Virus record (IMG/VR): IMGVR_UViG_3300012347_000377
Location: 1-64,000 of that record
DNA from: a virus
Lineage: Duplodnaviria; Heunggongvirae; Uroviricota; Caudoviricetes
Strand: one strand, 5' to 3'
Length of the DNA stretch: 64,000 nucleotides
A program made the position numbers and the translations under genes. Of this stretch, positions 2,954 to 20,281 are shown piece by piece. Position 1 is the first letter of the stretch, and every line of letters begins with the position of its first letter. The notes beneath the pieces were generated by a model, which saw nothing but the letters and a program-made list of their open reading frames with translations, ran no database searches and was not told where the DNA came from.

Positions 2954-3607
2954 ATGAAAATTACATTAAACAAAGGACAAAAGTTATGGTTCACAAGTGA
3001 TACTCACTATAACCATGCAAACATTTGTTCCGCCACAACAAAGTGGACAGACCCCGTAACTTGTAGAGAGTTTACATCGTTAGCACAAATGAACTCACAT
3101 CTTATAGCTAACATCAATTCAGTTGTGGAACAAGATGACATTTTATTTCATTTGGGTGATTGGAGTTTCGGTGGGTTTGAACAAATACAAATATTCAGAG
3201 ATAGTATTTTTTGTAAAAACGTTCACATTATTACTGGTAATCACGACCATCACATTGAAAACAATAAGGAAGATTGTCAATCACTTTTCAGTTCGGTAAA
3301 CAAATACCTAAACTTAAATGTAAAATGGAATGTAGGAACTCATTTCGCAGGTGAACAACGATTTGCTCTAATGCACTTTCCAATTGCAAGTTGGGATAAT
3401 ATGGCTAAGGGTGCAATTCACTTACATGGTCACGTTCACTTTTCACCTAAATTAAGAATCGGTAAAGGTAAGATGATGGATGTGGGCGTAGATGGTAATC
3501 GTTTATTCCCAATTGAAATGAGCGAGGTATTAAAGTTAATGAAACCACAGCCAATCAAAAGTTTGTTTGAGTTTGATCATCACGAGATTGTTGAAAATTA
3601 TAGATAA
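2954..3607 (+). CDS. calcineurin-like metallophosphoesterase
   Basis: Motifs SDTHYNH, HLGDW, GNHDHH typical of the metallophosphoesterase fold. Confidence 0.65.
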   Translation: MKITLNKGQKLWFTSDTHYNHANICSATTKWTDPVTCREFTSLAQMNSHLIANINSVVEQDDILFHLGDWSFGGFEQIQIFRDSIFCKNVHIITGNHDHHIENNKEDCQSLFSSVNKYLNLNVKWNVGTHFAGEQRFALMHFPIASWDNMAKGAIHLHGHVHFSPKLRIGKGKMMDVGVDGNRLFPIEMSEVLKLMKPQPIKSLFEFDHHEIVENYR

Positions 3608-3820
3608 ATGAAAAAAATTAAATTAGTAAAATATGATTATGATTCATTTCCAATAGAATGGAAAACAAATAATCATAATCCATTTGAAGGACAGGTATTT
3701 GCTTTAATTGGTGAAGTAGATCAAATGCCAGGTCATTCTTATTTACAGAATATAGAAACTGGTTTACCAATTATATTGGACACCGATAATTTAATCGAAT
3801 TAAACGAAGACGAACTATGA
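3608..3820 (+). CDS. hypothetical protein (70 aa)
   Basis: ORF, TAAATG junction with upstream gene. Confidence 0.4.
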   Translation: MKKIKLVKYDYDSFPIEWKTNNHNPFEGQVFALIGEVDQMPGHSYLQNIETGLPIILDTDNLIELNEDEL

Positions 3821-3992
3821 TAAAAGTATTTACATCAAGTGTAAGTCCGGACAATAATGAGGCCGGTATTGATTTTACTAAAATGATTGAATTGTGGATA
3901 AGCGGATTAGCAACTAAAATACAAATTAAAAACATACATACCAATTCAAATGAATATGGTTGGATGGTTATTATTCACTACGAATTATGGTA
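3816..3992 (+). CDS. hypothetical small protein (58 aa)
   Basis: ATGA overlap with upstream stop; not in supplied track (<60 aa). Confidence 0.3.
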
Positions 3993-4181
3993 AGAACTAA
4001 AGAATGGATTTGTAAAGTTATCGGTCACAAGTATTCCTATAACTTTGGATGGATGCCTAATAAGTGTGAGTGTAAACGCTGTGGCATGAAATGGAAAACT
4101 ATTAAGAACCCAGAATATATTCCTGGTAAGTCTAATCCAATTGAAACTGATTTATATAGTTGGATTGAAGATAATTCCTAA
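3986..4181 (+). CDS. small Cys-containing protein (CxC...CxxC, zinc-ribbon-like)
   Basis: ORF 3960-4181 trimmed to ATG overlapping upstream stop; KCECKRCG motif. Confidence 0.35.
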
Positions 4182-4185
4182 AACA

Positions 4186-4219
4186 TTTGGAAATATCAAA
4201 AATTATTTGTATATTTACA
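4186..4219 (+). promoter_or_regulatory. phage promoter, Bacteroidota sigma-A type (-33 TTTG / -7 TAtaTTTA)
   Basis: atttggaaatatcaaaaattatttgtatatttacat; member of family recurring about 23 times. Confidence 0.55.
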
Positions 4220-4241
4220 TATCGAATTAAAAAAACAGATT

Positions 4242-4451
4242 ATGGCAAGAAAAGAAATTTCATTTAGAATACCGGGAATCAATTGGATAATCGGATTGGT
4301 GATAGCAATGATTGGATATACCATTCACAATAGTATATTTTGGGCAATTATGGATTATATCTTTTGGCCTTTTGCAGTAGTTAAATGGTTAATCTGTCAT
4401 GAAGTTAATTTAACAATTATAAAACAGACCTTTGATTGGTTCTTAAAATAA
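4242..4451 (+). CDS. small membrane protein
   Basis: Hydrophobic 69-aa ORF. Confidence 0.4.
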   Translation: MARKEISFRIPGINWIIGLVIAMIGYTIHNSIFWAIMDYIFWPFAVVKWLICHEVNLTIIKQTFDWFLK

Positions 4452-4464
4452 AAAAAAGAAAATT

Positions 4465-4722
4465 ATGAAAAAAGTATTATTAGGATTATTGGGAATTATG
4501 ATGTTAGTATCTTGTACTGAAAACACGCGTGCAAGAGTATGGGGTGGAACACAAACTCTTCAGTTAGAAGAAGGAGTTAGATTAGTAAATGTAACTTGGA
4601 AAGAAGGTTCAGATTTATGGATTCTTACAAAAAAGGATACTACTAAAGCATCAACATATTCATTTAGTGAAAAATCAAATTTGGGTGTGATGGAAGGACA
4701 AGTAATCATTATAGAAAAATAA
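4465..4722 (+). CDS. putative lipoprotein (85 aa)
   Basis: Signal peptide with lipobox-like LVSCTEN. Confidence 0.45.
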   Translation: MKKVLLGLLGIMMLVSCTENTRARVWGGTQTLQLEEGVRLVNVTWKEGSDLWILTKKDTTKASTYSFSEKSNLGVMEGQVIIIEK

Positions 4723-4732
4723 AATAAAAGTT

Positions 4733-5380
4733 ATGGCTATTAAATTAAACGCAGAAAGTTGGCATTATAAGTTATTCAAAAAAGAATTACCATACACCGA
4801 ACCACCACGAACACTTTGTCCATATTTTTGGATATTAGTTGGGTTGTGTATTGCTACTCCATTTTTAGCAATTGGTAGAGGAATTGATTCAATAACTACA
4901 AAAGCAACATCATTAATTCCGAAAAAACCAAAGGTTGAAAAATCAGCCGAAGAATGGTTAAAAGAATGGGATGAGAAGGACAGACGGAGAGAAATTAAAC
5001 TAATTAGAATGGAAAAGATTGGTAAGTTTTTTGGTAAAGTGTTTATGTATGGAATCGTGCCAATATGTTTAATTTTATTATTATATGGTATGTTTACCGA
5101 GTTTCAAAAAATTGGTTGGTATAATTCGTTAATCGGAGTAGGTGTATGTATCTTAATTGCACTATTCATAGTTGGATTTTTTCACTTAATTGGATTCCTT
5201 TTTGAACGATATTCAACTAAAGTAGGAAATGCTATTGTTAAATTTTCAATATTCATTTTTACACCGATAAAATGGATTGGGTGGATGATTAAAGCAGGAT
5301 ATGAAAAAGCATGTCCTTTAGTAGAATGGGAAGGTGATGTGTATAAAGAACGTAAGAGAGAATACAATCAGTTTGATTAG
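4733..5380 (+). CDS. integral membrane protein (215 aa)
   Basis: Several hydrophobic helices. Confidence 0.5.
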   Translation: MAIKLNAESWHYKLFKKELPYTEPPRTLCPYFWILVGLCIATPFLAIGRGIDSITTKATSLIPKKPKVEKSAEEWLKEWDEKDRRREIKLIRMEKIGKFFGKVFMYGIVPICLILLLYGMFTEFQKIGWYNSLIGVGVCILIALFIVGFFHLIGFLFERYSTKVGNAIVKFSIFIFTPIKWIGWMIKAGYEKACPLVEWEGDVYKERKREYNQFD

Positions 5381-5392
5381 ATAATCAATATT

Positions 5393-5686
5393 ATGAGTAT
5401 AACATTTGGAGGTGAGCATTTAACAATAAAAGGTAGCACGAAAGCTACAATCAAACGTTCGATTGAAATAGTTGGAACTAATTCAGTATTACCAATTGAA
5501 ATAATTGGTGATTTCAAAGATATTCCACCACATTTACATCAAATGTATATAGAATCAATGATAGCATCGTATGGTAGTGTGGATGTGTATGATAATACTG
5601 AACCAGAACCTAAAACAATTGAAGAGCAAAAGAGTGAGTGGAGATGGAATAGAATAGTTGATATAATTGGTAAAGCAATAAGATGA
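5393..5686 (+). CDS. hypothetical protein (97 aa)
   Basis: ORF; ATGA overlap with next gene. Confidence 0.45.
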   Translation: MSITFGGEHLTIKGSTKATIKRSIEIVGTNSVLPIEIIGDFKDIPPHLHQMYIESMIASYGSVDVYDNTEPEPKTIEEQKSEWRWNRIVDIIGKAIR

Positions 5687-6066
5687 AAGAATTAATATTA
5701 GTTAGAGGATTGCCGGGAAGTGGTAAATCAACATTTGCATCAATCCTAAGTGGGTGGGTGTTAGAAGCAGATATGTATTTTATACAAGATGGAAAATACA
5801 AATTTGATGCATCTAAATTATCAGAAGCACATAAGTGGTGTAGAAATGAATGTTTGAATTATATGAAATCTGAAAAACCTAAGATTATCGTTTCAAACAC
5901 ATTTACCCAACAATGGGAAATGGATGCGTATATGGGTATGGCTAAAGAATATGGTTATAGAGTTCATACTGTCATTGTAGAAAACAGACACGATGGTGTA
6001 AATATCCACAATGTACCAGAAGATAAGTTAGAACAAATGGCTAATCGTTTTGAAATTCAATTATAG
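5683..6066 (+). CDS. P-loop kinase, polynucleotide-kinase-like (kinase domain only)
   Basis: N-terminal Walker A LVRGLPGSGKSTFA resembling T4 Pnk kinase domain. Confidence 0.55.
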   Translation: MKELILVRGLPGSGKSTFASILSGWVLEADMYFIQDGKYKFDASKLSEAHKWCRNECLNYMKSEKPKIIVSNTFTQQWEMDAYMGMAKEYGYRVHTVIVENRHDGVNIHNVPEDKLEQMANRFEIQL

Positions 6067-6195
6067 GATATGAAAGTAAATGAAATATTGGATGTAGTAA
6101 TTCCTGGACTAATAATATTACCTATGATAATTATGATTTCTGTAATATTCGTGAAGGCGATGTGGGTAGTTTTTAAGAGTATTAAATAATAAATT

Positions 6196-7028: not shown

Positions 7029-7172
7029 ATTATGGAAAATAGTAAATTATCAATAATTACAAATACCATCTTTAATGTTGCATTAGTTGCAGGTATTGTA
7101 TATCTAGCATCTAATAATTCGGATGGCTGGGGATGGTTGATATTAATATTACTTTTAAAAGAATGTTAAAAT

Positions 7173-7736: not shown

Positions 7737-7766
7737 AAACATTTTACCTTTAACTAAATGATAATT

Positions 7767-7842: not shown

Positions 7843-8700
7843 ATGAATATGACACGTTTATTATTAAATCTTACTGATGTTGAAAAATCAGACATCGCAT
7901 TTAAAATTTCTTATTTTCCAGATGGCCAGCAATCCATCTCAATTGAACCAGTCGGTTCTACTCCTACAATTCGAATTCAATCACGATTAAATTCATTCAG
8001 AGATGTTGAATTAATTATTTGTGCTAACCAATCTCTTAAAGAAATGGGTGCTAAAGATATTGAATTATATGTTCCATATTTTTTAGGTTCTAGAAGTGAT
8101 AGAAAATTTGGTGAAGGTCAAACTAACTATCTTAAAAATGTTATTTCTCCAATTATTAATTCACAAGGATTTTCAAAAGTTATTACATTAGACCCACATA
8201 GTGATGTATTGGAGGCATGTTTAAACAACTACGAGAAAGAAGATAATTTCAAATTAGTAGAATATGCAATCGAACAATTGGGTAAGAAAGAAAACTTAGT
8301 TTTAGTATCACCCGATGCAGGAGCATTTAAGAAAATATTTGAAGTTGGTAAAGAATTCCAAATTGAGAACATTATTACTGCAAGTAAAGTTCGTGATATA
8401 AAAACAGGTGATATTGTGAGTACGAGTATTCCAATGTTAAGTAGAAACAATCGTTTTAAGTATGTAATCATCGATGATATTTGTGATGGTGGCAGAACGT
8501 TTATCGAACTTGCAAAGGCTATTAAAGAACAACGTGAAGGTGTTGAAATTTATTTGGTTGTAACTCATGGAATATTCTCAGCAGGATTTACTGAATTAAC
8601 TAAATACTTTAATGGTATTTTCTGCACTAATAGTTATAGAAATGTTTTAGATGATGAGTATGGAGTTAAAACCAAAACAAAACAAATAAATGTATATTAA
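7843..8700 (+). CDS. prs: ribose-phosphate pyrophosphokinase family protein (Prs-like; possibly ADP-ribose pyrophosphokinase of an NAD+ reconstitution pathway)
   Basis: VPYFLGSRSDRK, VSPDAGAF, IIDDICDGGRTF (PRPP-binding), VTHGIFS align to Prs motifs. Confidence 0.8.
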   Translation: MNMTRLLLNLTDVEKSDIAFKISYFPDGQQSISIEPVGSTPTIRIQSRLNSFRDVELIICANQSLKEMGAKDIELYVPYFLGSRSDRKFGEGQTNYLKNVISPIINSQGFSKVITLDPHSDVLEACLNNYEKEDNFKLVEYAIEQLGKKENLVLVSPDAGAFKKIFEVGKEFQIENIITASKVRDIKTGDIVSTSIPMLSRNNRFKYVIIDDICDGGRTFIELAKAIKEQREGVEIYLVVTHGIFSAGFTELTKYFNGIFCTNSYRNVLDDEYGVKTKTKQINVY

Positions 8701-8701
8701 T

Positions 8702-9127
8702 ATGGAAAACGTAGATGAATATTTAGAAACTGGTAAATCATTACGAAGATTAATCGATGAATATACCAAGTATGGTTCATTATGTATTGGATATGATTTT
8801 GATGGAACGGTCTATGATTATCACCAAACCGGTGCAAAGTATGATCAAGTAATTGATTTACTACAAGACCTTAAGGTAATGAATTGTAAATTGATTTGTT
8901 GGACAGCACAAAATGATTTAGAATTTGTTGAGAAATTTTTAACGGAAAATAGCATACCATTTGATGGGATAAATACCGATGGTATTAACTTAGGTTGGGA
9001 AAGTAGAAAACCATTCTTCTCAGCACTTTTAGATGATAGAGCTGGATTGAAACAAGTCTATGAAGACCTTCGTATGTTAGTGACTTTATTTAAAATACCT
9101 ACCGATAAATTTGGAAATCCAAAATAA
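8702..9127 (+). CDS. small HAD-like protein (DFDGT motif)
   Basis: ORF 8690-9127 trimmed to ATG after Prs stop; YDFDGTVYDYH. Confidence 0.35.
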   Translation: MENVDEYLETGKSLRRLIDEYTKYGSLCIGYDFDGTVYDYHQTGAKYDQVIDLLQDLKVMNCKLICWTAQNDLEFVEKFLTENSIPFDGINTDGINLGWESRKPFFSALLDDRAGLKQVYEDLRMLVTLFKIPTDKFGNPK

Positions 9128-9141
9128 AAGTTGTATATTAG
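9110..9141 (+). promoter_or_regulatory. phage promoter overlapping end of upstream gene
   Basis: atttggaaatccaaaataaaagttgtatattagc. Confidence 0.45.
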
Positions 9142-9171
9142 CTTTATAATTAACAGATAAACAATAAAACT

Positions 9172-10650
9172 ATGAATCCATTATTATTAACCGATGGTTA
9201 TAAGACAGGTCATCACCAACAATACCCAGAGGGAACAACGTTGGTTTATTCAAATTTCACACCCCGCAGTAACAAATATGCACCAACGGGTTGTGATAAT
9301 GTAGTATCGTTTGGTCAACAAATGATTATGAAACAAATTCACGAGGCATTTCAAAATGAATTCTTCTCTAAACCAAAAGAAGAAGTTTGTGGTGAAATGA
9401 AACGTGAGTTAAGTTTGTATTTGGGAACTGATTATGATGTTTCTCATTTTGAAGCATTACATGATTTGGGTTATTTACCAATCATTGTAAAAGGTATTGA
9501 AGAAGGAACATTAGTTCCAATGAGAGTACCAGTATTAACAATCTATAATACATTACCGGAATTTTATTGGGTTACAAATTATTTAGAAACAATCATTTCT
9601 AACTTATTATGGAAACCAATGACATCTGCTACTATTGCTCATACCTATCGTAAGGTATTAACTAAATGGCAAGAAAAAACCGATGCTGAAAAAGGTTGGT
9701 TTGTTGATTGGCAAGGACATGACTTCTCAATGAGAGGAATGGATTCAGTTGAAGCTACAATCGCTAGTGGATTAGGACACTTAACATCATTTAGTGGAAC
9801 TGATAGTTTACCTGCTATTTACGGAGCAAGAAAGTTCTATGGTGAAGAAGGATTCGTTGGAGGTTCGGTAAACGCAACCGAACATAGTGTAATGTGTGCT
9901 GGTTCTAAAGATGATGAAGTTGGAACATTCCGCAGATTGTTAGAAACATATCCAAAAGGTATTTTATCAGTTGTAAGTGATACTTGGGATTTATGGAAAG
10001 TATGCACCGAACATATCGTTACTCTTAAAGAAGAAATCTTAGCAAGAGATGGTAAGTTGGTAATCAGACCTGATAGTGGTGACCCCGTAGATATTCTTTG
10101 TGGATTAGCAAACACCGACAGAGCGGCTAAAGGAGATTCTCATGATAATGCAAACGCAGCTTATAAAGGAGTTATTGAATTACTTTGGGACGTGTTTGGT
10201 GGAACAATCAACGAACAAGGTTACAAAGTATTAGATTCTCACATTGGAGCAATTTATGGTGATAGTATCACAATTGATAGAGCTGATGAGATTTGTAGAA
10301 GATTGGAAGCAAAAGGTTTCGCATCTACAAACGTTGTATTAGGTATTGGTTCATTCACATATCAGTATAACACGAGAGATACATTTGGATTCGCTATGAA
10401 AGCAACCTATGTTGAAGTAAATGGTGAAGGTAGAGAAATCTTCAAAGACCCTATTACTGATGATGGTGTTAAGAAATCAGCCAAAGGTTTATTAAGAGTT
10501 GCGGGAGATGAAACCCATATGTTATTAGAAGACCAATGTACGTGGGAACATGAAACAACTGGTAAATTACAAACCATTTATAAGAATGGTGAGTTTTATA
10601 ATGAAACTACTTTAACTAAAATCAAAGAGAAAATTAAAACAAATAAATAA
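9172..10650 (+). CDS. nadV: nicotinamide phosphoribosyltransferase family protein (NAMPT/NadV-like)
   Basis: N-terminus MNPLLLTDGYKTGHHQQYPEGT... matches NAMPT family start (..ATDSYKVTHYKQYPP..); 492 aa. Confidence 0.8.
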   Translation: MNPLLLTDGYKTGHHQQYPEGTTLVYSNFTPRSNKYAPTGCDNVVSFGQQMIMKQIHEAFQNEFFSKPKEEVCGEMKRELSLYLGTDYDVSHFEALHDLGYLPIIVKGIEEGTLVPMRVPVLTIYNTLPEFYWVTNYLETIISNLLWKPMTSATIAHTYRKVLTKWQEKTDAEKGWFVDWQGHDFSMRGMDSVEATIASGLGHLTSFSGTDSLPAIYGARKFYGEEGFVGGSVNATEHSVMCAGSKDDEVGTFRRLLETYPKGILSVVSDTWDLWKVCTEHIVTLKEEILARDGKLVIRPDSGDPVDILCGLANTDRAAKGDSHDNANAAYKGVIELLWDVFGGTINEQGYKVLDSHIGAIYGDSITIDRADEICRRLEAKGFASTNVVLGIGSFTYQYNTRDTFGFAMKATYVEVNGEGREIFKDPITDDGVKKSAKGLLRVAGDETHMLLEDQCTWEHETTGKLQTIYKNGEFYNETTLTKIKEKIKTNK

Positions 10651-10670
10651 TAATTAAAACACAAAAAAAA

Positions 10671-12545
10671 ATGTTACAAACAATTTTAGGTTACTCATGG
10701 ATATTAATTCCAGTATTAGCATTGGTATTTTACAAATTCATTCTAAGAGTGGTATTTGGTATGGTGATTATTCCAGAAAATAAAATCGGATTAATTACTA
10801 AGAAGTTCGTTTTATTCGGTGCAAACAAATCGTTACCCGATGGAAAGATTATCGCATTGAATGGTGAGCCGGGTTACCAAGCTCAAACTCTTGCTCCTGG
10901 TTTATATTGGGGATATTGGATTTGGCAGTATTCAATTGACCAAGCTAATTTAACGGTTATTGAAAAAGGTAGAATTGGTTTATTATCCGCAAAGGATGGT
11001 GCACAATTACCAACCGGGGCAATCTTAGCTCGTCATATCGAATGTGATAATTTCCAAGATACAAAAGCATTCTTATTAAATGGTGGACAAAGAGGTAAGC
11101 AAGTAAACTATTTGAACAACGGAGTTTATCGTATTAATCCATTCTTATTTGATGTTGCAACTGCTGATATTACAAACATTGAAGATGGGCAAGTTGGTAT
11201 TATTACTGCATTAGATGGAACACCATTGGATAGTGGGAATATTGCGGGAACAACTATTGAAGGACATAATAACTTTCAGGACTTTGATAAGTTCTTAGCA
11301 AATGGTGGACAGAGAGGTTTACAAACACAAGTAGTTCAAGCCGGTAACTATTCATTTAACCCGTGGGCTATTCAAGTGGAGAAAGTAGATATGACTCAAA
11401 TTCCTATTGGACACGTTGGTGTTATTATTTCATATGTTGGTAAAGAGGGTAAAGATACTTCGGGTACAACTTTCAAACATGGTAATATCGTAGGTAAAGG
11501 TGAGAAGGGTGTTTGTGGTGTTCCATTAGACCCAGGTAAATATGCAATCAATCCTTATACTCATAAGATTGAAGTTGTTCCAACTACTAACTTAGTATTG
11601 AATTGGGCAAACGCAAGAAGTGAATCACATAATTTAGATAAAGGATTGAGCACGATTACTGTCCGTTCAAAAGATGGTTTCCCATTCAACTTAGATGTAT
11701 CACAAATTATTCACATTCCTGCAACTGAAGCACCAAAGGTAATTGCACGATTCGGTTCAATGCAGAACTTAGTTTCACAAGTATTAGAACCAACGATTGG
11801 AAACTATTTCCGTAACTCGGCACAAGATAGTGATGTAATCGCGTTCTTATCAACTCGTCAGATGAGACAAGATGCAGCGAAAGTATCCATCTCTAAAGTG
11901 TTAGATGAATATAACGTTCACGCAGTAGATACATTGATTGGTGATATTAACCCACCAGAATCATTAATGAAAACTCTTACTGATAGAAAGATTGCACAAG
12001 AAGAAGAGGTTACATTTGAAACACAACGTAAAGCACAAGACCAACGTAAAACATTGGAATCTGCTAAGGCGTTAGCGGATATGCAAGGACAGATGGTAGC
12101 AGCACAACAATCGGTAGAAATTTCCGAAAGAGAAGCACAGGCATCGGTTAAACGTTCCGAAGGTGAGGCTAAAGCAATTGAGTTAAAAGCAACTGCACAA
12201 GCAAACGCGAAGAAAGTAACTGCTTCTGCAGATGCAGCACAAATCGAATTAGTAGGTGCCGCGGAAGCAACGAAGATTGAAGCAATTGGTAAATCAACCG
12301 CTGAGGCGTATAAGTTACAAGTTGATGCTATGGGTGGTGATAATTTCGCTAAGTTTAAAATTACCGAAGAGATTGGTAAGAACGGAATTAAAATTATTCC
12401 AGAAATCTTAATCAATGGTAATGGTAATGGTTCACCGATTGATGGATTATTAGGAATGGAATTGTTAAAACAAATTCAGGACAAAAAAGATATTCAATCA
12501 ATTGTAGAAACAACAACTGAACCTACATCCAAAAAAAGTAAATAA
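10671..12545 (+). CDS. flotillin/SPFH (band 7) family membrane protein, YqiK-like
   Basis: N-terminal TM helix, repeated NGGQRG...INPF segments, C-terminal Ala/Glu-rich flotillin-type region. Confidence 0.55.
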   Translation: MLQTILGYSWILIPVLALVFYKFILRVVFGMVIIPENKIGLITKKFVLFGANKSLPDGKIIALNGEPGYQAQTLAPGLYWGYWIWQYSIDQANLTVIEKGRIGLLSAKDGAQLPTGAILARHIECDNFQDTKAFLLNGGQRGKQVNYLNNGVYRINPFLFDVATADITNIEDGQVGIITALDGTPLDSGNIAGTTIEGHNNFQDFDKFLANGGQRGLQTQVVQAGNYSFNPWAIQVEKVDMTQIPIGHVGVIISYVGKEGKDTSGTTFKHGNIVGKGEKGVCGVPLDPGKYAINPYTHKIEVVPTTNLVLNWANARSESHNLDKGLSTITVRSKDGFPFNLDVSQIIHIPATEAPKVIARFGSMQNLVSQVLEPTIGNYFRNSAQDSDVIAFLSTRQMRQDAAKVSISKVLDEYNVHAVDTLIGDINPPESLMKTLTDRKIAQEEEVTFETQRKAQDQRKTLESAKALADMQGQMVAAQQSVEISEREAQASVKRSEGEAKAIELKATAQANAKKVTASADAAQIELVGAAEATKIEAIGKSTAEAYKLQVDAMGGDNFAKFKITEEIGKNGIKIIPEILINGNGNGSPIDGLLGMELLKQIQDKKDIQSIVETTTEPTSKKSK

Positions 12546-12548
12546 AAT

Positions 12549-13025
12549 ATGGCATTAGTATTAAAGCCAGGTATGGTAGGGACGGGAGCAATCTCGTCCC
12601 CATCTGTATTTTTAGCAGGTTCTATTGAAATGGGAGTTGCTGAAAATTGGCAAGAAAGAATTGAAAGAGAATTTTCAGATGAAGAACTAACATTCTTTAA
12701 TCCTCGCAGAGATGATTGGGATAGTAGTTGGTCACAAACTGGAGAACAATTTAACACACAAGTAAATTGGGAATTAAATGCATTAGATGATTCAGATATT
12801 ATCTTTATGTATTTTTCACCCGAAACTAAATCACCAATTTCTTTATTAGAATTGGGATTATATGCAGATTCACAAAAAATGATTGTAGTTTGTCCAGATG
12901 GATTTTGGAGAAAGGGTAATGTGAGTGTGGTGTGTACAAGAAATAATATACCAATGTTTAATACAATCGAAGAGGGTATATTTGCATTAAGAACATCTGT
13001 TAGAAAAAATCAAAAATTATATTAG
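12549..13025 (+). CDS. nucleoside 2-deoxyribosyltransferase-like Rossmann protein
   Basis: VFLAGS..., ...SLLELGLY... pattern reminiscent of the NDT-like family; weak. Confidence 0.3.
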   Translation: MALVLKPGMVGTGAISSPSVFLAGSIEMGVAENWQERIEREFSDEELTFFNPRRDDWDSSWSQTGEQFNTQVNWELNALDDSDIIFMYFSPETKSPISLLELGLYADSQKMIVVCPDGFWRKGNVSVVCTRNNIPMFNTIEEGIFALRTSVRKNQKLY

Positions 13026-13053
13026 GATATATCAAAAATATTTTGTATATTTG
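13021..13053 (+). promoter_or_regulatory. phage promoter (attagg variant of -33, -7 TATATTTG)
   Basis: attaggatatatcaaaaatattttgtatatttg. Confidence 0.45.
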
Positions 13054-13079
13054 TAATATAAATTAATAAGATATAAAAG

Positions 13080-13526
13080 ATGAATGATAAAATTGTAGGA
13101 TTTACGTGTAGCACATTTGATTTACTTCATACTGGTCATATTTTGATGTTAGAAGAAGCTAAATCTCAATGTGATTATTTAATTTGTGGATTACAGATAG
13201 ACCCAACGGTAGATAGACCTCAAAAGAATTCACCGGTTCAATCGTATTACGAACGTTTTATTCAATTGAGTGCAGTTAAATATGTGGATGCAATTATACC
13301 ATATACGACCGAAGAAGAATTGATGACAATATTACAAACAAACGATATTGATATTAGAATATTGGGTGATGAGTATGAAAGAAAACTATTCACTGGTTCT
13401 AATTTAGATATGGATTATTACTTTAATAAACGAACTCACAATTATAGCACAACCGAATTACGAAAACGAGTTGCATTAAAGGAATCTCAATTAGGAGGAA
13501 GTGAAACTGATAATACTAAACAATAA
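13080..13526 (+). CDS. cytidylyltransferase-like nucleotidyltransferase (HxGH); candidate NMN adenylyltransferase
   Basis: GFTCSTFDLLHTGHILMLEEAK is the (T/H)xGH nucleotidyltransferase signature. Confidence 0.5.
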   Translation: MNDKIVGFTCSTFDLLHTGHILMLEEAKSQCDYLICGLQIDPTVDRPQKNSPVQSYYERFIQLSAVKYVDAIIPYTTEEELMTILQTNDIDIRILGDEYERKLFTGSNLDMDYYFNKRTHNYSTTELRKRVALKESQLGGSETDNTKQ

Positions 13527-13532
13527 TAAGAA

Positions 13533-14672
13533 ATGGAAAACTTAAATTCAGTTTGCTACGTAGCAACGATTAATGAAATCAAACCAATCGAAGGTGCTGA
13601 CAACATCGAACTTGTAATAGCAGGTGGATGGAATGCAATCACAAAGAAAGGTGAATTTAAAGTAGGTGATACAACCATCATCGCAACTACTGATGCAGTT
13701 ATACCAGAATCACTTTCCGAAGAAATGGGAGTTACAAACTATCTTCGTAAAGGTAATAGAGTTAGGACTGTGAAGTTAAGAGGTGTATATTCAGAATGTT
13801 TGATTATACCAAAGCAGTATCTAATGGGTAATGTGACAATGGGTGATTATGATTTGGGTGAAGGTAGTGATTGTATGGAGTTCTTAGGGATTACTAAATT
13901 CGAACCACCAGTTAAGATGGTTCAATTAGCAAGTGGTAAAAAGATTCGTTATCAAGATAATCCAAACTTTCATGTCTATTATAAGTTTCCTAACTTAAAG
14001 AATGTACCTGATATGTTTACTAACAATGATTTAGTAGAAATCACTCGTAAGATACATGGAACTAATGCTCGATATGGTATTGTTAAAAAGAACAAATTAT
14101 CATTATTTGATAAGCTTAAGAAATTCTTTGGATTTGCCGATAAGTGGATTGATTACGAATTCGTAGTTGGTTCTCATAACGTAGAGAAAGGTTCAGACTC
14201 CAATGGGTTCTATGATACTAATGTTTGGTATGAAATTGAAAAGAAATACAACATCAAACAAAAATTATGGGATTACGTTAAAAATGAAAACGTTTATATT
14301 GGTGATGGTATTACCTTATATGGTGAGATTTACGGAGCGGGAATCCAAAAGGGATATGAGTATGGGTTAAAAGATATTGAGTTCGTAGGATTCGATGTAA
14401 AGGAGTGTGGTGAGTATTTAAGTACCTACAATGCTTGGAGGGTAATTAAAAATGAATTAGAATTACCTTATGTTGAAATTTTACACTTCGGTGATTGGTC
14501 ACAAGAAATACAAGATTCTTTTGTATTTAATAACTTTATCGAAGGAACAAAAGTTCCACATGAAGGAATTGTAATCAAATACCACACAGGTGAAAGACCA
14601 AAGATTGCTAAGGTAATCAACCCTGATTATTTAATCTTTGCAGAAAAACACAATGTGGGGGATTCCCATTAA
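13533..14672 (+). CDS. ATP-dependent RNA ligase, Rnl2-like, with extra N-terminal domain
   Basis: Motif I KIHGTN, motif IV EGIVIK, motif V IAKVIN in canonical order. Confidence 0.65.
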   Translation: MENLNSVCYVATINEIKPIEGADNIELVIAGGWNAITKKGEFKVGDTTIIATTDAVIPESLSEEMGVTNYLRKGNRVRTVKLRGVYSECLIIPKQYLMGNVTMGDYDLGEGSDCMEFLGITKFEPPVKMVQLASGKKIRYQDNPNFHVYYKFPNLKNVPDMFTNNDLVEITRKIHGTNARYGIVKKNKLSLFDKLKKFFGFADKWIDYEFVVGSHNVEKGSDSNGFYDTNVWYEIEKKYNIKQKLWDYVKNENVYIGDGITLYGEIYGAGIQKGYEYGLKDIEFVGFDVKECGEYLSTYNAWRVIKNELELPYVEILHFGDWSQEIQDSFVFNNFIEGTKVPHEGIVIKYHTGERPKIAKVINPDYLIFAEKHNVGDSH

Positions 14673-14686
14673 TAATTAAAACAATT

Positions 14687-15094
14687 ATGAAACAGAGAAT
14701 TTATTTAGATGATGTTAGAACTCCCGTTGGAGATGGATGGACAATAGTTAGAAACTATGACCAATTCATATCTACCATTCAATATATTGGATTAGAAAAT
14801 ATTGAACTAATATCATTAGACCACGATTTGGGAGATTCGGCAATGAAAGAATGGCATTATGGTGTGACTAAAAATTATGCTATTAACTATGACAACATTA
14901 CAGAAAAGACTGGAATGGATTGCACCAAATGGTTAGTTAATCAATGGTTAGATGGACAACCGGTAGTGGATGTAGTAGTCCATTCAGCAAACGCAATTGG
15001 TTCTGCTAATATGATGGGGTATATAAACAATTATAGACATTTGAATAGACTACCACAAAATTGTGTAAGAGTTCAAATAGAACATACCGTTTAA
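14687..15094 (+). CDS. hypothetical protein (135 aa)
   Basis: ORF. Confidence 0.45.
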   Translation: MKQRIYLDDVRTPVGDGWTIVRNYDQFISTIQYIGLENIELISLDHDLGDSAMKEWHYGVTKNYAINYDNITEKTGMDCTKWLVNQWLDGQPVVDVVVHSANAIGSANMMGYINNYRHLNRLPQNCVRVQIEHTV

Positions 15095-15102
15095 AAATTA
15101 CG

Positions 15103-15261
15103 ATGATGATGTTTATTACAATGTTAGTTATACTTTTTTTATGGCTTGCATATGCAGGATGGTCTGCACCTCTTATGAGAGAAAACAAAGATGGAAGTTG
15201 GACAACGATTCAACCACAAAAACGATTTAAAGATTTATTTAAAAAATCTAAAAAGAAATAA
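15103..15261 (+). CDS. small membrane protein (52 aa)
   Basis: ORF 15061-15261 trimmed to ATGATGATG start; hydrophobic. Confidence 0.3.
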   Translation: MMMFITMLVILFLWLAYAGWSAPLMRENKDGSWTTIQPQKRFKDLFKKSKKK

Positions 15262-15539
15262 TGAATAATCAATATAAAATATATAGACAATCTTATTTGG
15301 ATGAATATGGTGTAGAGAGTTCAATATCATATTATATCAGAGAACGTAAAAACTTTTTAGGTATTTCATATTGGAAATCTATAAAACATGAGGTATGTGG
15401 ATATGGTGATTGCTATAATGTGAGAACCCAATTTAAATCAGTAGAAGAAGCCGAAACCTTTGTTAAGGAAAAACTTTGCACAAAGATTGGTAAGGATAAG
15501 TGGGTAGAGAAAGAAGTAAAACAATTAAGTTGTAATTAA
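15261..15539 (+). CDS. hypothetical protein (92 aa)
   Basis: ORF. Confidence 0.45.
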   Translation: MNNQYKIYRQSYLDEYGVESSISYYIRERKNFLGISYWKSIKHEVCGYGDCYNVRTQFKSVEEAETFVKEKLCTKIGKDKWVEKEVKQLSCN

Positions 15540-15540
15540 A

Positions 15541-16122
15541 ATGAAAGTAATATTTTTAGACCACGATGGTGTTATATGTTTAGCAACTGAATGGGGTGGT
15601 AGATTTAAGAAACAAACTGAAGTGGGTAGAAAATTATCCCAATCAGTTACGTCTTTACCCACCGATGCACGTTTTGATAATTTCAATAAAAAAGCAATTG
15701 TAATATTAAATGAAATATTAGAAGAAACTAACGCTGAGATTGTTGTATCATCTGATTGGAAAAGATGGGCAAGTGTTGAGGAGATGGGTGAATATTATGA
15801 ATCACAAGGAATCAAAAAGAAACCAATAGCATTTACCAAAAATTTAAGTGAGTGTGATGTACCTGAAAATTTCGTATGGTCACGTAAATGGGATTTGGAA
15901 CAAACTCGCTCGTTAGAAATTAATCAATACCTTAGAGATAATCCAAGTATTACTCATTGGGTTGCAGTAGATGATTTGAATATGGGAATACCTCAAACAC
16001 ATGAATCGTGGGGTGATATGGAAATGGATTGGGGATTAACTAACTTTGTTCTAACACCGAGAAGTAGAGAAGGAATTAAACAAAGTGGTATTAAAGAAAA
16101 AATATTAGAATTTCTAAAATAA
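15541..16122 (+). CDS. HAD-superfamily phosphatase
   Basis: Motif I FLDHDGVI at N-terminus, VAVDD near C-terminus. Confidence 0.5.
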   Translation: MKVIFLDHDGVICLATEWGGRFKKQTEVGRKLSQSVTSLPTDARFDNFNKKAIVILNEILEETNAEIVVSSDWKRWASVEEMGEYYESQGIKKKPIAFTKNLSECDVPENFVWSRKWDLEQTRSLEINQYLRDNPSITHWVAVDDLNMGIPQTHESWGDMEMDWGLTNFVLTPRSREGIKQSGIKEKILEFLK

Positions 16123-16126
16123 TATT

Positions 16127-16897
16127 ATGCCGGAATTAGCAGAACTACGTCTTACCGCAGATTATATCAATCAAACTGCAAAGGGTAAAATTTTTCATAG
16201 TGTAAGAAAGAATCCAACTCACAAATGTCCTGAAATATCGGAAGAGTTGGATTTTCCTTTTACCATTAAAGCAGAAAGTAAAGGTAAAGAATTGATGCTT
16301 GAAATTACGCCACAACTAATGGATGGTGAAAAAAAATACTTAATGATGACAATGGGTATGAGTGGTCATTTCAAATGGTTAGTAGAAGGAACTACTCATA
16401 AACATGCACATTTAATATTTAATTCTGATGGAGGTTCTTTGGCTTTTGTAGATGTTAGAAGATTTGGTAAATGGAAATGGGGAAGTTGGGGTAATGATAG
16501 AGGACCAGACCCTACCACCGATTTTCAAAACTTTATTCGTAATATTAAAAATAACCTACATAAGAACGATTTTAATAAACCAATATGTGAAGTTCTGATG
16601 AATCAAAAATACTTCAATGGTATTGGTAATTATTTGAGAGCAGAAATATTATATAGAGTTAATGTAAATCCATTTATTCCAGCAAGAGAAGCATTAACAT
16701 CTCATTCTGAAATTTATGAATTATGTAGATGGGCACCATTACAAGCTTATAAATTAGGGGGTGGTGTAGTTGAATCATATAGACAAATGTTGAATAGTTG
16801 GGAAGAATTCATTCTATGTTATAATCGACCAAATATGAGTAAAGTGAAAGATAAAAATGGAAGAACATTTTGGTATGATAAAAAATGGGATATTTAA
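16127..16897 (+). CDS. nei: Fpg/Nei-family DNA glycosylase (endonuclease VIII-like)
   Basis: N-terminal MPELAEL (catalytic Pro2/Glu3); H2TH motif NGIGNYLRAEILYRV. Confidence 0.75.
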   Translation: MPELAELRLTADYINQTAKGKIFHSVRKNPTHKCPEISEELDFPFTIKAESKGKELMLEITPQLMDGEKKYLMMTMGMSGHFKWLVEGTTHKHAHLIFNSDGGSLAFVDVRRFGKWKWGSWGNDRGPDPTTDFQNFIRNIKNNLHKNDFNKPICEVLMNQKYFNGIGNYLRAEILYRVNVNPFIPAREALTSHSEIYELCRWAPLQAYKLGGGVVESYRQMLNSWEEFILCYNRPNMSKVKDKNGRTFWYDKKWDI

Positions 16898-16910
16898 TAA
16901 AAAAGGAATT

Positions 16911-17471
16911 ATGATAAAATTAAAAGATTTAATAACCGAAAAGAAAACTGGTTATGATTACGGATGTGTAATGTTATATTTTACACCAAACGAAGATGTA
17001 GTTAAATTTCAAAATCAAATATCACCATCTGATTTGTATATTGCAGAAGATAATGGTGGATATGGAATTGAAGATGAAGCACATTGCACCTTATTGTATG
17101 GATTACATGAAGAAGTTAAGTTAGAAACGATTTCACAAATATTGAATAGAATTCAATTTGGAGAATGTAAAATTCATAACCCATCTCTTTTTGAAAACGA
17201 AAAGTTTGATGTTCTTAAATTTGATGTAGGCTATCCATCCAAAGGTGGTGCGTTTTTACATAAAGCAAATACGGAATTGGTAAAACTACCAAACACTCAA
17301 ACATATCCAGATTACCACCCACATATGACAGTTGCATATTTAAAACCGGGAATGGGTAAAAAGTATGTTGATATGTTAAATGGTAAAGTAAATACGTTTA
17401 TACTTAATCCTACACACGCAGTGTATTCACAGCCGGATGGTAGTAAAACTGAAATCAAAATAAATAAGTAA
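16911..17471 (+). CDS. 2H phosphoesterase (LigT/CPDase-like)
   Basis: Two H-x-T-x motifs: HCTLL and HMTVA. Confidence 0.5.
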   Translation: MIKLKDLITEKKTGYDYGCVMLYFTPNEDVVKFQNQISPSDLYIAEDNGGYGIEDEAHCTLLYGLHEEVKLETISQILNRIQFGECKIHNPSLFENEKFDVLKFDVGYPSKGGAFLHKANTELVKLPNTQTYPDYHPHMTVAYLKPGMGKKYVDMLNGKVNTFILNPTHAVYSQPDGSKTEIKINK

Positions 17472-20270: not shown

Positions 20271-20281
20271 TTGTAAAATTA

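Follow-up and report, generated by a model that had tools for sequence, protein, structure and literature searches.

Does the locus described here, in which a kinase, several phosphoesterases and an RNA ligase are encoded far apart from each other, hold one system for repairing broken RNA? The window, by which we mean the whole 64,000-nt stretch of DNA analyzed, comes from a jumbo phage whose hosts are Bacteroidota-type bacteria of fresh water. The original prediction had described these genes as a dispersed toolkit for healing and sealing RNA ends. All the ORFs that it named were found in place on the + strand, and the ORFs for both metallophosphoesterases (MPE1 and MPE2), the kinase (KIN), the ligase (LIG), the HAD phosphatase and the 2H phosphoesterase had catalytic motifs (Table 1). 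Three further elements, which that prediction had not mentioned, were the cREC gene at 14687, the Nei gene inside the cluster and a cassette (7843-13526) between the kinase and the ligase.

Table 1. Features of the window considered in this study
Feature	Coordinates	Strand	Basis
MPE1, calcineurin-like metallophosphoesterase	2954..3607	+	Pfam, PHROG, motifs
KIN, 127-aa stand-alone P-loop kinase, candidate 5'-OH polynucleotide kinase	5683..6066	+	Pfam, PHROG, PDB profile
NAD+-salvage and accessory cassette between KIN and LIG	7843..13526	+	family matches
Cassette gene, PRPP-synthetase-like (PRS)	7843	+	
Cassette gene, NAMPT	9172	+	
Cassette gene, SPFH	10671	+	
Cassette gene, NDT-like	12549	+	
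Cassette gene, cytidylyltransferase-like	13080	+	
LIG, ATP-dependent RNA ligase, Rnl5 (DraRnl/NgrRnl) architecture	13533..14672	+	Pfam, NCBIfam, PDB match
cREC, cyclic-phosphate-processing receiver-like protein	14687..15094	+	Pfam cREC_REC 3.8e-22
HAD phosphatase, 'Swiss-army-knife' RNA-repair type	15541..16122	+	Pfam HAD_SAK_2 1.2e-19
Nei, Fpg/Nei-family DNA glycosylase / AP lyase	16127..16897	+	Pfam Fapy_DNA_glyco, H2TH, Neil1-DNA_bind
2H phosphoesterase	16911..17471	+	two HxT motifs, AF2 fold match
tmRNA, GOLLD RNA and array of 26 tRNA genes	19030..30272	+	ARAGORN; Rfam tmRNA 102 bits, GOLLD 260 bits
MPE2, second metallophosphoesterase, usual cREC neighbour in relatives	57376..58152	+	Pfam

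Results

Ligase and kinase

The ligase was found to consist of an N-terminal OB domain followed by a nucleotidyltransferase domain (Pfam PHA02142 OB domain and RNA_ligase), with no C-terminal domain, the protein ending 19 aa past motif V. It matched the NCBIfam model TIGR02306 (RNA_lig_DRB0094, 2.7e-29), and its only strong PDB relative was NgrRnl (1e-15 with the single sequence and 1e-20 with a profile), in a match that was colinear across both domains. Motifs I, III, IV and V were invariant, and KIHGTN, GEIYG, EGIVIK and KIAKV were kept in all 27 orthologues. A failing motif alignment had been named as one result that would speak against the prediction; since the motifs are intact, the ligase withstands that test. 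The ligase had been described as of the Rnl2 type, with these motifs and an extra N-terminal domain. Both of these features were borne out, the extra domain being the OB domain, but we rejected the Rnl2 type given this domain, the missing C-terminal domain and the match to NgrRnl/DraRnl. Unlike T4 Rnl2, the protein has the Rnl5 architecture, as do DraRnl and NgrRnl.

The predicted kinase-like domain was confirmed by Pfam (AAA_33, 6e-13), by PHROG 505 ('polynucleotide kinase', 2.7e-9) and by the P-loop GLPGSGKST; residues K15, D30, R102 and R122 were invariant. A profile search of the PDB returned PSTK, T4 Pnk, Pnkp1 and the CthPnkp kinase domain with E-values of 3e-4 to 0.02, and the likeness to proven polynucleotide kinases is weak. 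The kinase also matched the kinase module of phrog_8238 (1.6e-7), a 737-aa 'RNA ligase' profile of which the N-terminal part matches KIN and positions 193-260 match MPE1; the match to both proteins hints at a possible fusion.

Phosphoesterases

The two predicted metallophosphoesterases both matched Pfam Metallophos, MPE1 with 22.6 bits (cutoff 21.5) and MPE2 at 6.4e-14. MPE1 further matched PHROG 547 (1.4e-41), and its motifs DxH, GD, GNHD, H and GHxH were invariant across 29 orthologues. MPE1 had no close characterised relative, the nearest solved one being aq_1665 (1XM7, 4.5e-7), and its predicted structure had a pLDDT of 36. We regard it as a candidate 2',3'-cyclic-phosphodiesterase / 3'-phosphatase for 3'-end healing. 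MPE2 matched PADLOC PDC-S10 (9.5e-72) and lay 42 kb away from the rest of the operon genes, with a UvdE gene directly upstream.

The motifs YLDDVR, SLDHDLG and HSAN were invariant in cREC, which was 76% identical to gp37 of the Flavobacterium phage immuto. It is predicted to be a metal-independent opener of 2',3'-cyclic phosphates, a function that in the literature is a prediction (PMC7824862, PMC9503650) made, as for SAK-HAD, from context (PMC9503650). The HAD phosphatase, foreseen at 15541, had the conserved motifs DxDG, SSDW and DD and is a candidate 2'/3'-phosphomonoesterase. Nei, which starts 4 nt past the HAD stop codon and lies between HAD and 2H, had the catalytic N-terminus MPELAEL; its membership in the toolkit is uncertain.

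The start of 2H was placed at 16911 and not 16857 with the support of an orthologue alignment, and its two predicted HxT motifs (HCTL and HMTV) proved invariant. Its AF2 model (pLDDT 84) was matched by Foldseek to Usb1, phage Acb1-like phosphodiesterases, LigT and poxvirus cGAMP phosphodiesterase at TM 0.45-0.6, values that did not separate the subfamilies. Pfam 2_5_RNA_ligase2 and Acb1 both scored under their cutoffs, and the sole sequence-level PDB matches were Acb1 anti-CBASS nucleases (profile search, 0.016). The role of 2H is ambiguous: it may act on RNA 2',3'-cyclic phosphates, as a phosphodiesterase, or break down cyclic-nucleotide signals, as a nuclease.

Gene order in related phages

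We examined 80 related IMG/VR loci with ligases 64-85% identical, of which 70 had enough flanking sequence for tests of gene order. These loci belong to related phages and the synteny therefore does not amount to 80 independent observations. KIN was present in 65 of the 80 loci and MPE1 in 62 (median position -1559 nt from the ligase start), both usually immediately upstream of the ligase. Of the 70 testable loci, 40 had KIN directly upstream of LIG and 38 showed the order MPE1-KIN-LIG. At least one of cREC, HAD, MPE2 and 2H was found in 55/80 loci. cREC and MPE2 occurred in 28 and 29 of the 80, respectively, and were less than 2 kb apart in 19 of the 22 loci with both; 2H was found in 15/80 at about +3 kb from the ligase and Nei in 10/80 at about -5 kb. 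HAD-MPE1-KIN-LIG was contiguous in three loci (L004, L020 and L027), and a six-gene operon, cREC-HAD-MPE2-MPE1-KIN-LIG, occupied 3.1 kb in L024/L025. Phage immuto, a close relative, has its MPE1 orthologue 1 kb and its MPE2 orthologue 0.9 kb from cREC, and the stretch from MPE1 through cREC to MPE2 directly follows tRNA genes. The KIN family also adjoins Rnl1-type ligases in Aeromonas phiA009, Escherichia phage nomo and Pseudomonas PaP1, three cultured, unrelated phages that represent independent lineages for the kinase-ligase adjacency.

The predicted tRNA array and tmRNA were recovered, in an island with GOLLD RNA immediately downstream of the gene cluster. tRNA arrays lay less than 10 kb from the ligase module in 60/80 loci, with at least 10 tRNAs in 36, on a side of the module that varied by lineage; in 7 loci the operon started less than 150 nt past the last tRNA. 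In the window the operon is split by insertions between kinase and ligase, namely small ORFs and the NAD+ salvage/SPFH cassette. This layout was common to L008 and L009 while most relatives are without the cassette, and PaP1 has the same ligase-KIN-PRS-NAMPT juxtaposition.

Since the same genes physically adjoin in related phages, their grouping exceeds chance. The description of the toolkit as dispersed thus holds for the window, where the genes are up to 42 kb apart, but not for the relatives, where they are contiguous. Because of this contiguity, we regard the set in the window as a split operon, whose most likely task is to heal and seal RNA breaks. Synteny and tRNA arrays bear out the predicted set of linked enzymes, though not with an Rnl2-type ligase, and support a functional link between end healing and sealing.

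Discussion

A kit for the repair of tRNA or other RNA breaks is the most likely reading of the kinase, the phosphoesterases and the ligase, because in relatives the genes form one operon beside tRNA genes. We put at roughly 0.6 the probability that the gene set is left over from a single phage operon, since scattered, that heals and seals broken RNA, most probably tRNA. The domain identities, the intact catalytic motifs, the MPE1-kinase-ligase operon, the proximity to tRNA arrays and the kinase-ligase adjacency are direct observations, while we infer the substrates, the order of steps, the assignment of phosphoesterases to them and the anti-defence purpose. In the proposed mechanism, a metal-independent host or toxin RNase would cut so that one end bears a 2',3'-cyclic phosphate and the other a 5'-OH. 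The cyclic phosphate would then be opened and the leftover phosphate removed, with MPE1 as the core partner in a proposed role like that of the metallophosphoesterase domain of bacterial Pnkp, and cREC, 2H, HAD-SAK and MPE2 as alternative or extra 3'-end cleaners. The small P-loop kinase would phosphorylate the 5'-OH, and the Rnl5-type ligase, adenylylated on Lys173, would join the 3'-OH/5'-PO4 break while the RNA's own helices keep the ends together. Tpt1/KptA, sirtuin, RtcB and CCA-adding enzyme were not detected in the 64,000-nt window, which counts against RNA repair, as do the weak likeness of KIN to proven polynucleotide kinases, the lack of a close characterised relative of MPE1 and the Acb1 resemblance of 2H.

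The DNA-repair nucleases beside phosphoesterases (Nei by HAD and 2H, UvdE by MPE2) also weigh against it. They raise the alternative that the module processes DNA ends for a 'ribo-patch' repair, likened to mammalian NEIL-PNKP base excision repair: Nei, with its Pro2-Glu3 N-terminus intact, and UvdE would cut phage DNA at damaged positions, HAD, the metallophosphoesterases and the kinase would clean the 3'-phosphate and 5'-OH ends left by Nei (a beta,delta-lyase) or UvdE, and the ligase would seal nicks with ribonucleotides at the 3' end. End-healing enzymes of the T4 type accept both DNA and RNA as substrates. Rnl5 ligases require nicks in duplexes, and DNA repair after irradiation is the sole process in which the family has a known physiological phenotype, DraRnl deletion slowing genome reassembly (PMC5397189); both points weigh against the RNA-repair reading. 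On the other hand, Nei occurs in just 10 of the 80 loci and never next to the ligase, the conserved core sits beside tRNA arrays and not DNA-metabolism genes, the literature places HAD_SAK and cREC only in RNA-repair or ADP-ribose contexts, and in other phages the KIN family has Rnl1-type tRNA ligases as its partners. We consider DNA repair quite unlikely. A division of labour, in which MPE1, kinase and ligase alone repair RNA while 2H, cREC, MPE2 and possibly HAD destroy host immune signals (cyclic oligonucleotides and cyclic ADP-ribose derivatives), appears unlikely as well; with the NAD+ salvage cassette these would make an anti-CBASS, anti-Thoeris or anti-type-III-CRISPR set. The Acb1 matches of 2H include the DYPDYHPHMTVAY / DYPDYRPHITLSY block, many homologues have a precomputed Pfam Acb1 domain, and Acb1-like and poxvirus enzymes are among the fold matches. 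The link of 2H to the ligase is loose, cREC is also predicted to process cyclic ADP-ribose (PMC7824862), and NAMPT, PRS and the NDT-like gene adjoin the ligase. However, every Acb1 score was under the curated cutoffs and a LigT/ThpR-type model scored alike, T4-type Acb1 was not detectable among phage homologues, and the six-gene and HAD-containing operons join cREC, HAD and MPE2 to MPE1-KIN-LIG.

A role of the enzymes in maturing or recycling RNAs made by the phage itself, such as long tRNA-array/tmRNA/GOLLD transcripts or anticodon-less tRNA-like RNAs, seems very improbable. The seven operons that begin so close to the last tRNA could be co-transcribed with the array, and unusual tRNA-like elements share one island with GOLLD RNA, but the ligase occurred in only 4 of 119 stretches with tRNA-like elements and a search for intron-like structure found none. 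Bacterial tRNA maturation is not known to need ligation. We likewise disfavour as very improbable the view that there is no system, and that unrelated nucleotide-metabolism enzymes met by chance in one hyperplastic early-gene region. Unrelated ORFs are interleaved among the distant genes of the window, and the relatives share ancestry, so the synteny could be inherited; yet the MPE1-KIN-LIG order outlasts many rearrangements of nearby genes and of the tRNA-array position, and the kinase-ligase adjacency recurs in unrelated phages with a different ligase family.

Under the RNA-repair reading, the set may serve to counter anticodon nucleases. Similar phage gene sets, in which cREC, SAK-HAD, 2H, calcineurin-like proteins and a kinase accompany an ATP-dependent RNA ligase, have been published as predicted RNA-repair sets (PMC7824862, PMC9503650), and the set in the window therefore belongs to a kind already known in large phages.

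Genes of the predicted repair set and their source

An earlier reading of the sequence alone had proposed an RNA end-healing and sealing toolkit in the window. All the ORFs named in this original prediction were present, and their families were upheld by Pfam, PHROG and motif comparisons. A cREC gene, an Fpg/Nei glycosylase and the 7843-13526 block had been overlooked. The window has a GC content of ~31% and its + strand carries every long ORF. The closest annotated relative, Flavobacterium phage vB_FspM_immuto, was found via the cREC protein only (76% identical) and is without the ligase, while a megablast search of positions 9000-18000 against cultured phages gave no match. The source is an uncultivated jumbo phage, probably with a Bacteroidota host. 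An exact-protein look-up found no protein on record identical to the ligase (LIG); for the first metallophosphoesterase (MPE1), it returned an identical protein in near-identical strains with the same layout as the window, and metagenomic contigs of 287-289 kb also encode a protein identical to MPE1. MPE1 had 5,514 homologues, and the phage clade carrying this family is abundant.

Several genes of the auxiliary metabolic type were also noted. A tryptophan-halogenase-like flavoenzyme (2.8e-88), a B12-binding radical-SAM enzyme and two 2OG-Fe(II) oxygenases lie among 31643-33472 and 46193-54396, and PhoH, dCMP deaminase, NT5C and Hsp20 are encoded elsewhere in the window. In immuto (MW353176, record coordinates 18607-36971), DpdA, QueC/D/E/F and FolE make up a set for 7-deazaguanine DNA modification; genes of this kind did not turn up in the 64-kb window.

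Features of the window discussed in the text
Feature	Position	Strand	Matches and remarks
tRNA-like element	727-839	+	No recognisable anticodon loop
MPE1, calcineurin-type metallophosphoesterase	2954-3607	+	Pfam Metallophos, barely over cutoff; PHROG 547, 1.4e-41
KIN, P-loop kinase	5683-6066	+	127 aa; AAA_33, 6e-13; PHROG 505 'polynucleotide kinase', 2.7e-9
NAD+ salvage-type block	7843-13526	+	PRPP-synthetase-like (PRS), NAMPT, SPFH, nucleoside-2-deoxyribosyltransferase-like (NDT) and cytidylyltransferase-like genes; between KIN and LIG
NDT-like gene	12549-13025		PF15891
LIG, RNA ligase	13533-14672	+	KIHGTN (K173), GEIYG (E265), EGIVIK (E344, K349), KIAKV (K357, K360); Pfam PHA02142 OB, 1.3e-14 (N-terminal); RNA_ligase, 2.4e-14 (nucleotidyltransferase domain)
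cREC	14687-15094	+	Pfam cREC_REC (PF20274), 3.8e-22, 79.2 bits (cutoff 27)
HAD	15541-16122	+	HAD_SAK_2 (PF18143), 1.2e-19, 71.5 bits (cutoff 27.5); DxDG
Fpg/Nei glycosylase	16127-16897	+	Between HAD and 2H; Pro2-Glu3 N-terminus intact
2H phosphoesterase	16911-17471	+	Two HxT motifs; start backed by orthologue alignment
IscA-like Fe-S assembly protein	17744-18079		Straight after the repair cluster
Terminator-like hairpin	18654-18680		Just before the tmRNA
tmRNA and 26 tRNA genes	19030-30272	+	ARAGORN; tmRNA Rfam, 102 bits
tmRNA	19030-19404	+	Tag ends ...FVGADLAVAA
GOLLD RNA	20883-21294	+	Rfam RF02032, 260.5 bits, model positions 1-416, full-length; between tmRNA and tRNA array
Aberrant tRNA-like gene	21301-21373		ARAGORN 'tRNA-???', 4-nt anticodon; Rfam tRNA, 30 bits
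PF04308 'RNaseH_like' ORF	24298-24756	+	2.4e-20; inside the tRNA array
tRNA-like element	25501-25627	+	No recognisable anticodon loop
UvdE UV-damage endonuclease	55953-56852	+	1.5e-65; MPE2 directly downstream
MPE2, second metallophosphoesterase	57376-58152	+	Pfam Metallophos, 6.4e-14

The ligase has the architecture of the Rnl5 family

The LIG motifs, including a catalytic lysine (K173) in a KxHG context, were invariant in 27 orthologues. The only solved relative of LIG found by sequence was NgrRnl of Naegleria (1e-15 with the single sequence, 1e-20 with the profile). Residues 7-129 of NgrRnl aligned strongly with the OB domain of LIG, and the alignment over motifs III-IV was weak but colinear. 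The NCBIfam model TIGR02306 (RNA_lig_DRB0094, the DraRnl family) matched LIG at 2.7e-29, with 102 bits against an equivalog cutoff of 151. On the other hand, T4 Rnl2 matched the LIG profile at positions 258-296 only (39 residues, E=0.016), and the nucleotidyltransferase domain matched the generic Rnl2-like family phrog_548 (2.6e-15). LIG ends 19 residues past motif V and has no further domain. The domain layout is not that of a T4 Rnl2-type ligase, as the N-terminal OB domain is present and the C-terminal domain is absent. The OB domain, the family matches to NgrRnl and DraRnl, the end so soon after motif V and the short T4 Rnl2 match indicate that, as judged from its sequence, LIG has the architecture of Rnl5 (DraRnl/NgrRnl) and not of Rnl2. 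The original prediction of an Rnl2-type ligase with an extra N-terminal domain thus described the protein correctly, the extra domain being the OB domain, but gave it the wrong family name.

LIG has in common with DraRnl and NgrRnl the two-domain architecture, a significant OB similarity and motifs I-V, whereas its nucleotidyltransferase domain is divergent. The genetic context also differs, since the DraRnl gene is partnered by a DEDDh-like exonuclease gene (PMC5397189) while LIG is accompanied by end-healing enzymes and tRNA arrays. Around the Rnl5-type ligases of four unrelated cultured phages (S-CREM1, Bambus, vB_PseuGesM_254 and Zaria), most neighbours are hypothetical proteins, and the operon was not seen again.

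The kinase and the phosphoesterases

A polynucleotide-kinase-like P-loop domain had been predicted at 5683, and the AAA_33 and PHROG 505 matches bore this out. KIN contains a GLPGSGKST sequence, and D30, R102 and R122 are invariant. The matches of its family profile to solved structures were all weak (PSTK, 3e-4; T4 Pnk, 5e-4; Capnocytophaga Pnkp1; the CthPnkp kinase domain, 0.02), and D30/R102/R122 could be set against D35/R38/R126 of T4 Pnk on weak alignments only. The KIN family occurred in 623 cultured-phage records and abuts an Rnl1-type ligase in three unrelated cultured phage lineages. Aeromonas phiA009 has the order ligase-kinase, and in Pseudomonas PaP1 the order is phosphohydrolase-x-phosphoesterase...ligase-kinase-PRPP synthetase-x-NAMPT-x-phosphatase. 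In the rV5-like Escherichia phage nomo the ligase faces a kinase-phosphoesterase pair with two Sir2-like genes close by; Iyer et al. 2022 (PMC9503650) list the rV5-type arrangement among their phage RNA-repair neighbourhoods. The PHROG profile phrog_8238 has 737 aa and the annotation 'RNA ligase'; its N-terminal part matched KIN and its positions 193-260 matched MPE1, which hints at a fused Pnkp-like relative.

Both predicted metallophosphoesterases were confirmed by Pfam Metallophos. The metal-binding motifs of MPE1 (DxH, GD, GNH(D/E), H and GHxH, with D16, H18, D69, N96, H97, H141, H160 and H162) were invariant in 29 orthologues. Its structure prediction reached a pLDDT of only 36 because the alignment was confined to homologues of at least 81% identity. 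MPE2 matched the PADLOC candidate defence gene PDC-S10 (9.5e-72). The cREC gene starts 14 nt past LIG, and its residues D8, D9, D45 and D47 are invariant; its neighbours are the ligase and phosphoesterases, with no histidine-kinase partner, and its role is predicted, as in the literature. The HAD phosphatase that had been proposed at 15541 proved to be of the 'Swiss-army-knife' RNA-repair type by its HAD_SAK_2 match, with D7, D9, S70/S71 and D144/D145 invariant. PDB searches with cREC and with HAD gave no meaningful match.

The 2H phosphoesterase also stood as predicted, with H58-x-T60 and H138-x-T140 invariant among orthologues. Its AF2 model (pLDDT 84) matched 2H structures with a probability of 1.0, and from sequence and model together its membership of the 2H superfamily is secure. 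Within the superfamily, the model was about equally near to Usb1, LigT of E. coli, phage Acb1-like phosphodiesterases and a cGAMP phosphodiesterase from a poxvirus, with TM scores of 0.45-0.6. The scores against LigT were 0.40-0.49 by query length and 0.44-0.51 by target length, and those against Acb1 (0.46-0.59) were no better than those against Usb1 or the poxvirus enzyme. The sequence scored 17.6 bits against Acb1 PF23474 (cutoff 27), 22.7 bits against LigT/ThpR TIGR02258 (cutoff 65.7) and 19 bits against PF13563 (cutoff 27). A profile search of the PDB returned Acb1 anti-CBASS nucleases alone; the match was weak (E=0.016) and included a block of resemblance at the second HxT. The 778 homologues were variously annotated 2_5_RNA_ligase2 or Acb1 by Pfam. 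Those in cultured phages come from actinophages, huge phages and Maribacter phages; in the last of these a SAK-type HAD gene is 4 kb distant. Neither T4-like phages nor T4-type Acb1 were among the BLAST-detectable phage homologues.

Gene order in related loci

We scanned IMG/VR with the ligase of the window and obtained 80 loci, many on contigs of 100-290 kb, with ligases 64-85% identical; the ORFs of the window were then searched against these loci, and the 70 with enough upstream flank were used to count the upstream order. Since the loci come from related phages, they are not independent observations. KIN was present in 65 of the 80 loci (median -642 nt from the LIG start) and MPE1 in 62 (median -1559 nt). 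KIN lay directly upstream of LIG in 40/70 loci, and MPE1-KIN-LIG occurred in this order in 38/70, with all gaps at most 400 nt in 22. HAD was found directly upstream of MPE1-KIN-LIG in three related loci (L004, L020, L027), and two others (L024, L025) carry cREC-HAD-MPE2-MPE1-KIN-LIG inside 3.1 kb. cREC and MPE2 were at most 2 kb apart in 19 of the 22 loci with both, and at least one of cREC, HAD, MPE2 and 2H lay within 10 kb in 55/80. In immuto, cREC stands between the orthologues of MPE1 and MPE2, all within a 3.6-kb stretch that directly follows four tRNA genes.

The window layout, MPE1..KIN..PRS-NAMPT-SPFH-NDT-LIG, was shared by loci L008 and L009, while a number of other relatives have a contiguous MPE1-KIN-LIG; from this we infer that the window represents a lineage in which the ancestral operon was interrupted by insertion of the NAD+/SPFH cassette and of small ORFs. 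Genes are closely spaced in the block 12549-18079, where 0-14 nt separate the repair genes, and a terminator scan found one strong terminator-like hairpin only (18654-18680).

A sigma-70 promoter scan was uninformative for this kind of host (94 hits against 94.4 in shuffles). A promoter-like motif, TTTGGAAAT-N(14-18)-TTGTATATT, occurred 7 times against 0.22 expected (4187, 7797, 9111, 33532, 41138, 42802 and 61679, all on the + strand). Each site precedes an ORF start by 20-60 nt; PRS and NAMPT are among these ORFs, and none of them is a repair gene.

The NAD+ salvage-type cassette

NAMPT was identified by NF006629 (2.9e-167), the SPFH/Band-7 protein has 624 aa, and the cytidylyltransferase-like protein is possibly an NMNAT. 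The kinase-ligase pair lies beside PRS and NAMPT in the window and in L007, L008, L009, L059 and L071-74. The unrelated Pseudomonas phage PaP1 has the ligase-kinase-PRS-NAMPT juxtaposition independently, with an Rnl1 ligase. L002, L008 and L009 have the NDT-like gene immediately before the ligase.

tRNA genes and unusual RNAs

The tmRNA and tRNA array of the original prediction were recovered by ARAGORN. tRNA genes lay at most 10 kb from the ligase in 60/80 loci, and 36 loci had at least 10 tRNAs. The array is upstream or downstream of the module depending on the lineage, and in seven loci the operon starts at most 150 nt from the last tRNA.

Related tags, which end in ...FVGADYAVAA and ...FVGMDYAVAA, are conserved in the tmRNAs that relatives carry beside the tRNA array (1838-2205 in L003/L006, 2274-2644 in L018). 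The GOLLD RNA of the window directly abuts the aberrant tRNA-like gene; GOLLD RNAs form 14-mer RNA nanocages and are often near phage tRNA islands (PMC12286853). The PF04308 ORF also occurs near arrays in 7 ligase loci.

The two tRNA-like elements of the window belong to a large family which is apparently undescribed, and we found no description of it in the literature searched. Copies also occur in the loci L033-35, L059 (three copies), L071-74, L078, L080 and L086-L204; IMG/VR yielded more than 130 distinct copies in all, and a 5-kb stretch may contain as many as 6. Every copy was found by searching for an exact 24-nt T-arm/3'-acceptor, CAGGUUCGAAUCCUGUCCUGACUA, and only those with the 5' acceptor half AGUCAGG (DNA AGTCAGG) were kept, so the constancy of these parts follows from the search criteria. 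A tRNA-Leu-like D arm, which was not a criterion, is conserved in large part. In contrast to it the centre is hypervariable, with arbitrary sequence and an arbitrary length of 18-130 nt, which makes the whole element 70-182 nt long; short copies have a simple hairpin there, closed by a loop of 3-4 nt. The inspected copies showed no recognisable anticodon loop, and just 4 copies encode CCA. ARAGORN did not call the elements, and Rfam scored them as weak tRNA (37-38 bits). They are not specifically tied to the ligase, which was held by 4 of 119 element-bearing stretches. The idea that they are intron-bearing tRNAs spliced by the toolkit was rejected for want of support, because 3-4-nt loops replace the anticodon loops in short copies, complementarity between centres and the window is at chance level, and so few of the stretches hold the ligase.

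Discussion

We consider it probable (about 0.6) that MPE1, KIN and LIG, with their accessories, constitute a healing-and-sealing pathway for RNA, probably tRNA. MPE1 would be the core 3'-end healer, in the manner of the metallophosphoesterase domain in bacterial Pnkp; KIN would act as the 5'-kinase and the Rnl5 ligase as the sealer, and cREC, HAD-SAK, MPE2 and 2H may serve as accessory or alternative phosphoesterases.

Assignment of LIG to Rnl5 rather than Rnl2 matters for this interpretation, because Rnl5 ligases seal 3'-OH/5'-PO4 duplex nicks and require ribonucleotides at the 3'-OH end, and because DraRnl has a DNA-repair phenotype; the physiology of the family has been called uncharted, an open question (PMC5397189). 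The DraRnl phenotype, the Fpg/Nei gene adjoining HAD and the UvdE gene adjoining MPE2 would all fit a DNA 'ribo-patch' or base-excision-repair role for the module, which we nevertheless regard as improbable. The peripheral phosphoesterases might instead degrade signal nucleotides, together with the NAD+ salvage genes, and this seems unlikely, if slightly less so than DNA repair; the 2H protein is like Acb1 of phages T4 and FBB1 in fold, in its similar size and in the block at the second HxT, whereas all its scores fall under the family thresholds and it is ~40 aa longer. That the enzymes mature the RNAs of the phage itself appears very unlikely. Least credible of all is that the genes stand together by coincidence and form no system; the MPE1-KIN-LIG order persists although its surroundings are reshuffled.

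The set resembles T4 Pnkp/Rnl and bacterial Pnkp in its working and belongs to neither. Like the T4 Pnkp and Rnl1/Rnl2 system, which acts on PrrC-cleaved tRNA-Lys, it joins a putative 5'-kinase and 3'-phosphoesterase to an ATP-dependent RNA ligase in a large phage with tRNA genes; a further likeness is that KIHGTN, motif I of LIG, belongs to the Rnl2/Rnl5 (PF09414) type. However, T4 Pnkp is one kinase-HAD polypeptide while the kinase and phosphatases of the window are separate proteins, the core phosphatase is a metallophosphoesterase, and LIG has an N-terminal OB and no C-terminal domain, unlike T4 Rnl1 and Rnl2. The bacterial Pnkp/Hen1 systems (CthPnkp; Capnocytophaga Pnkp1-Rnl-Hen1) likewise have a P-loop kinase, a calcineurin-type phosphoesterase and a ligase, and the weak matches of KIN to the Pnkp1 and CthPnkp kinase domains and of KIN and MPE1 to parts of phrog_8238 point the same way. 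In CthPnkp the kinase, metallophosphoesterase and ligase are fused, whereas in the window MPE, kinase and ligase are separate genes that follow one another in this order, and its ligase clade (Rnl5) differs from that of Pnkp/Hen1. No Hen1 or methyltransferase match was obtained with any scanned ORF of the window, nor was Tpt1/KptA, sirtuin, RtcB, RlaP or a CCA-adding enzyme detected in them.

Burroughs & Aravind 2016 is reportedly, with Iyer et al. 2021 and 2022, a source for phage RNA-repair neighbourhoods such as those of rV5-like coliphages. Sets located by tRNA genes with cREC, SAK-type HAD, 2H, calcineurin-like and nucleotide kinase genes have been published (PMC7824862, PMC9503650), and their domain families and predicted role are common to the window; the rV5-like phage nomo also has the same kinase family by its ligase. 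The published sets are centred on Rnl1/Rnl2 or RtcB, often with a sirtuin or KptA, whereas that of the window has an Rnl5-type ligase and neither of these was detected; its interruption by an NAD+ salvage cassette is a further difference. Specific to the window are therefore the Rnl5-type sealer and the three-gene MPE-kinase-ligase operon, in an abundant clade and split by the NAD+ cassette.

RNA healing and sealing kits by tRNA genes are already established in the literature as a counter-defence of large phages, and the gain here is therefore incremental. A conserved operon beside tRNA arrays in an uncultivated jumbo-phage clade, in which an Rnl5 ligase is accompanied by a metallophosphoesterase and a putative miniature polynucleotide kinase, yields a testable hypothesis, the repair of tRNA or duplex-RNA breaks, and the loci offer natural combinations of cREC and SAK-HAD enzymes with predicted functions. 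A more speculative and improbable idea is that RNA repair in these phages is coupled to NAD+: the PRS/NAMPT juxtaposition would then reflect a functional dependency, and an NAD+-consuming substitute for Tpt1/KptA, for which the NDT-like protein is a candidate, would strip the 2'-phosphate left by 2H or cREC. If true, this would be the first physiological pathway for the Rnl5 family. The main value of the finding is that it gives Rnl5 ligases a testable physiological context.
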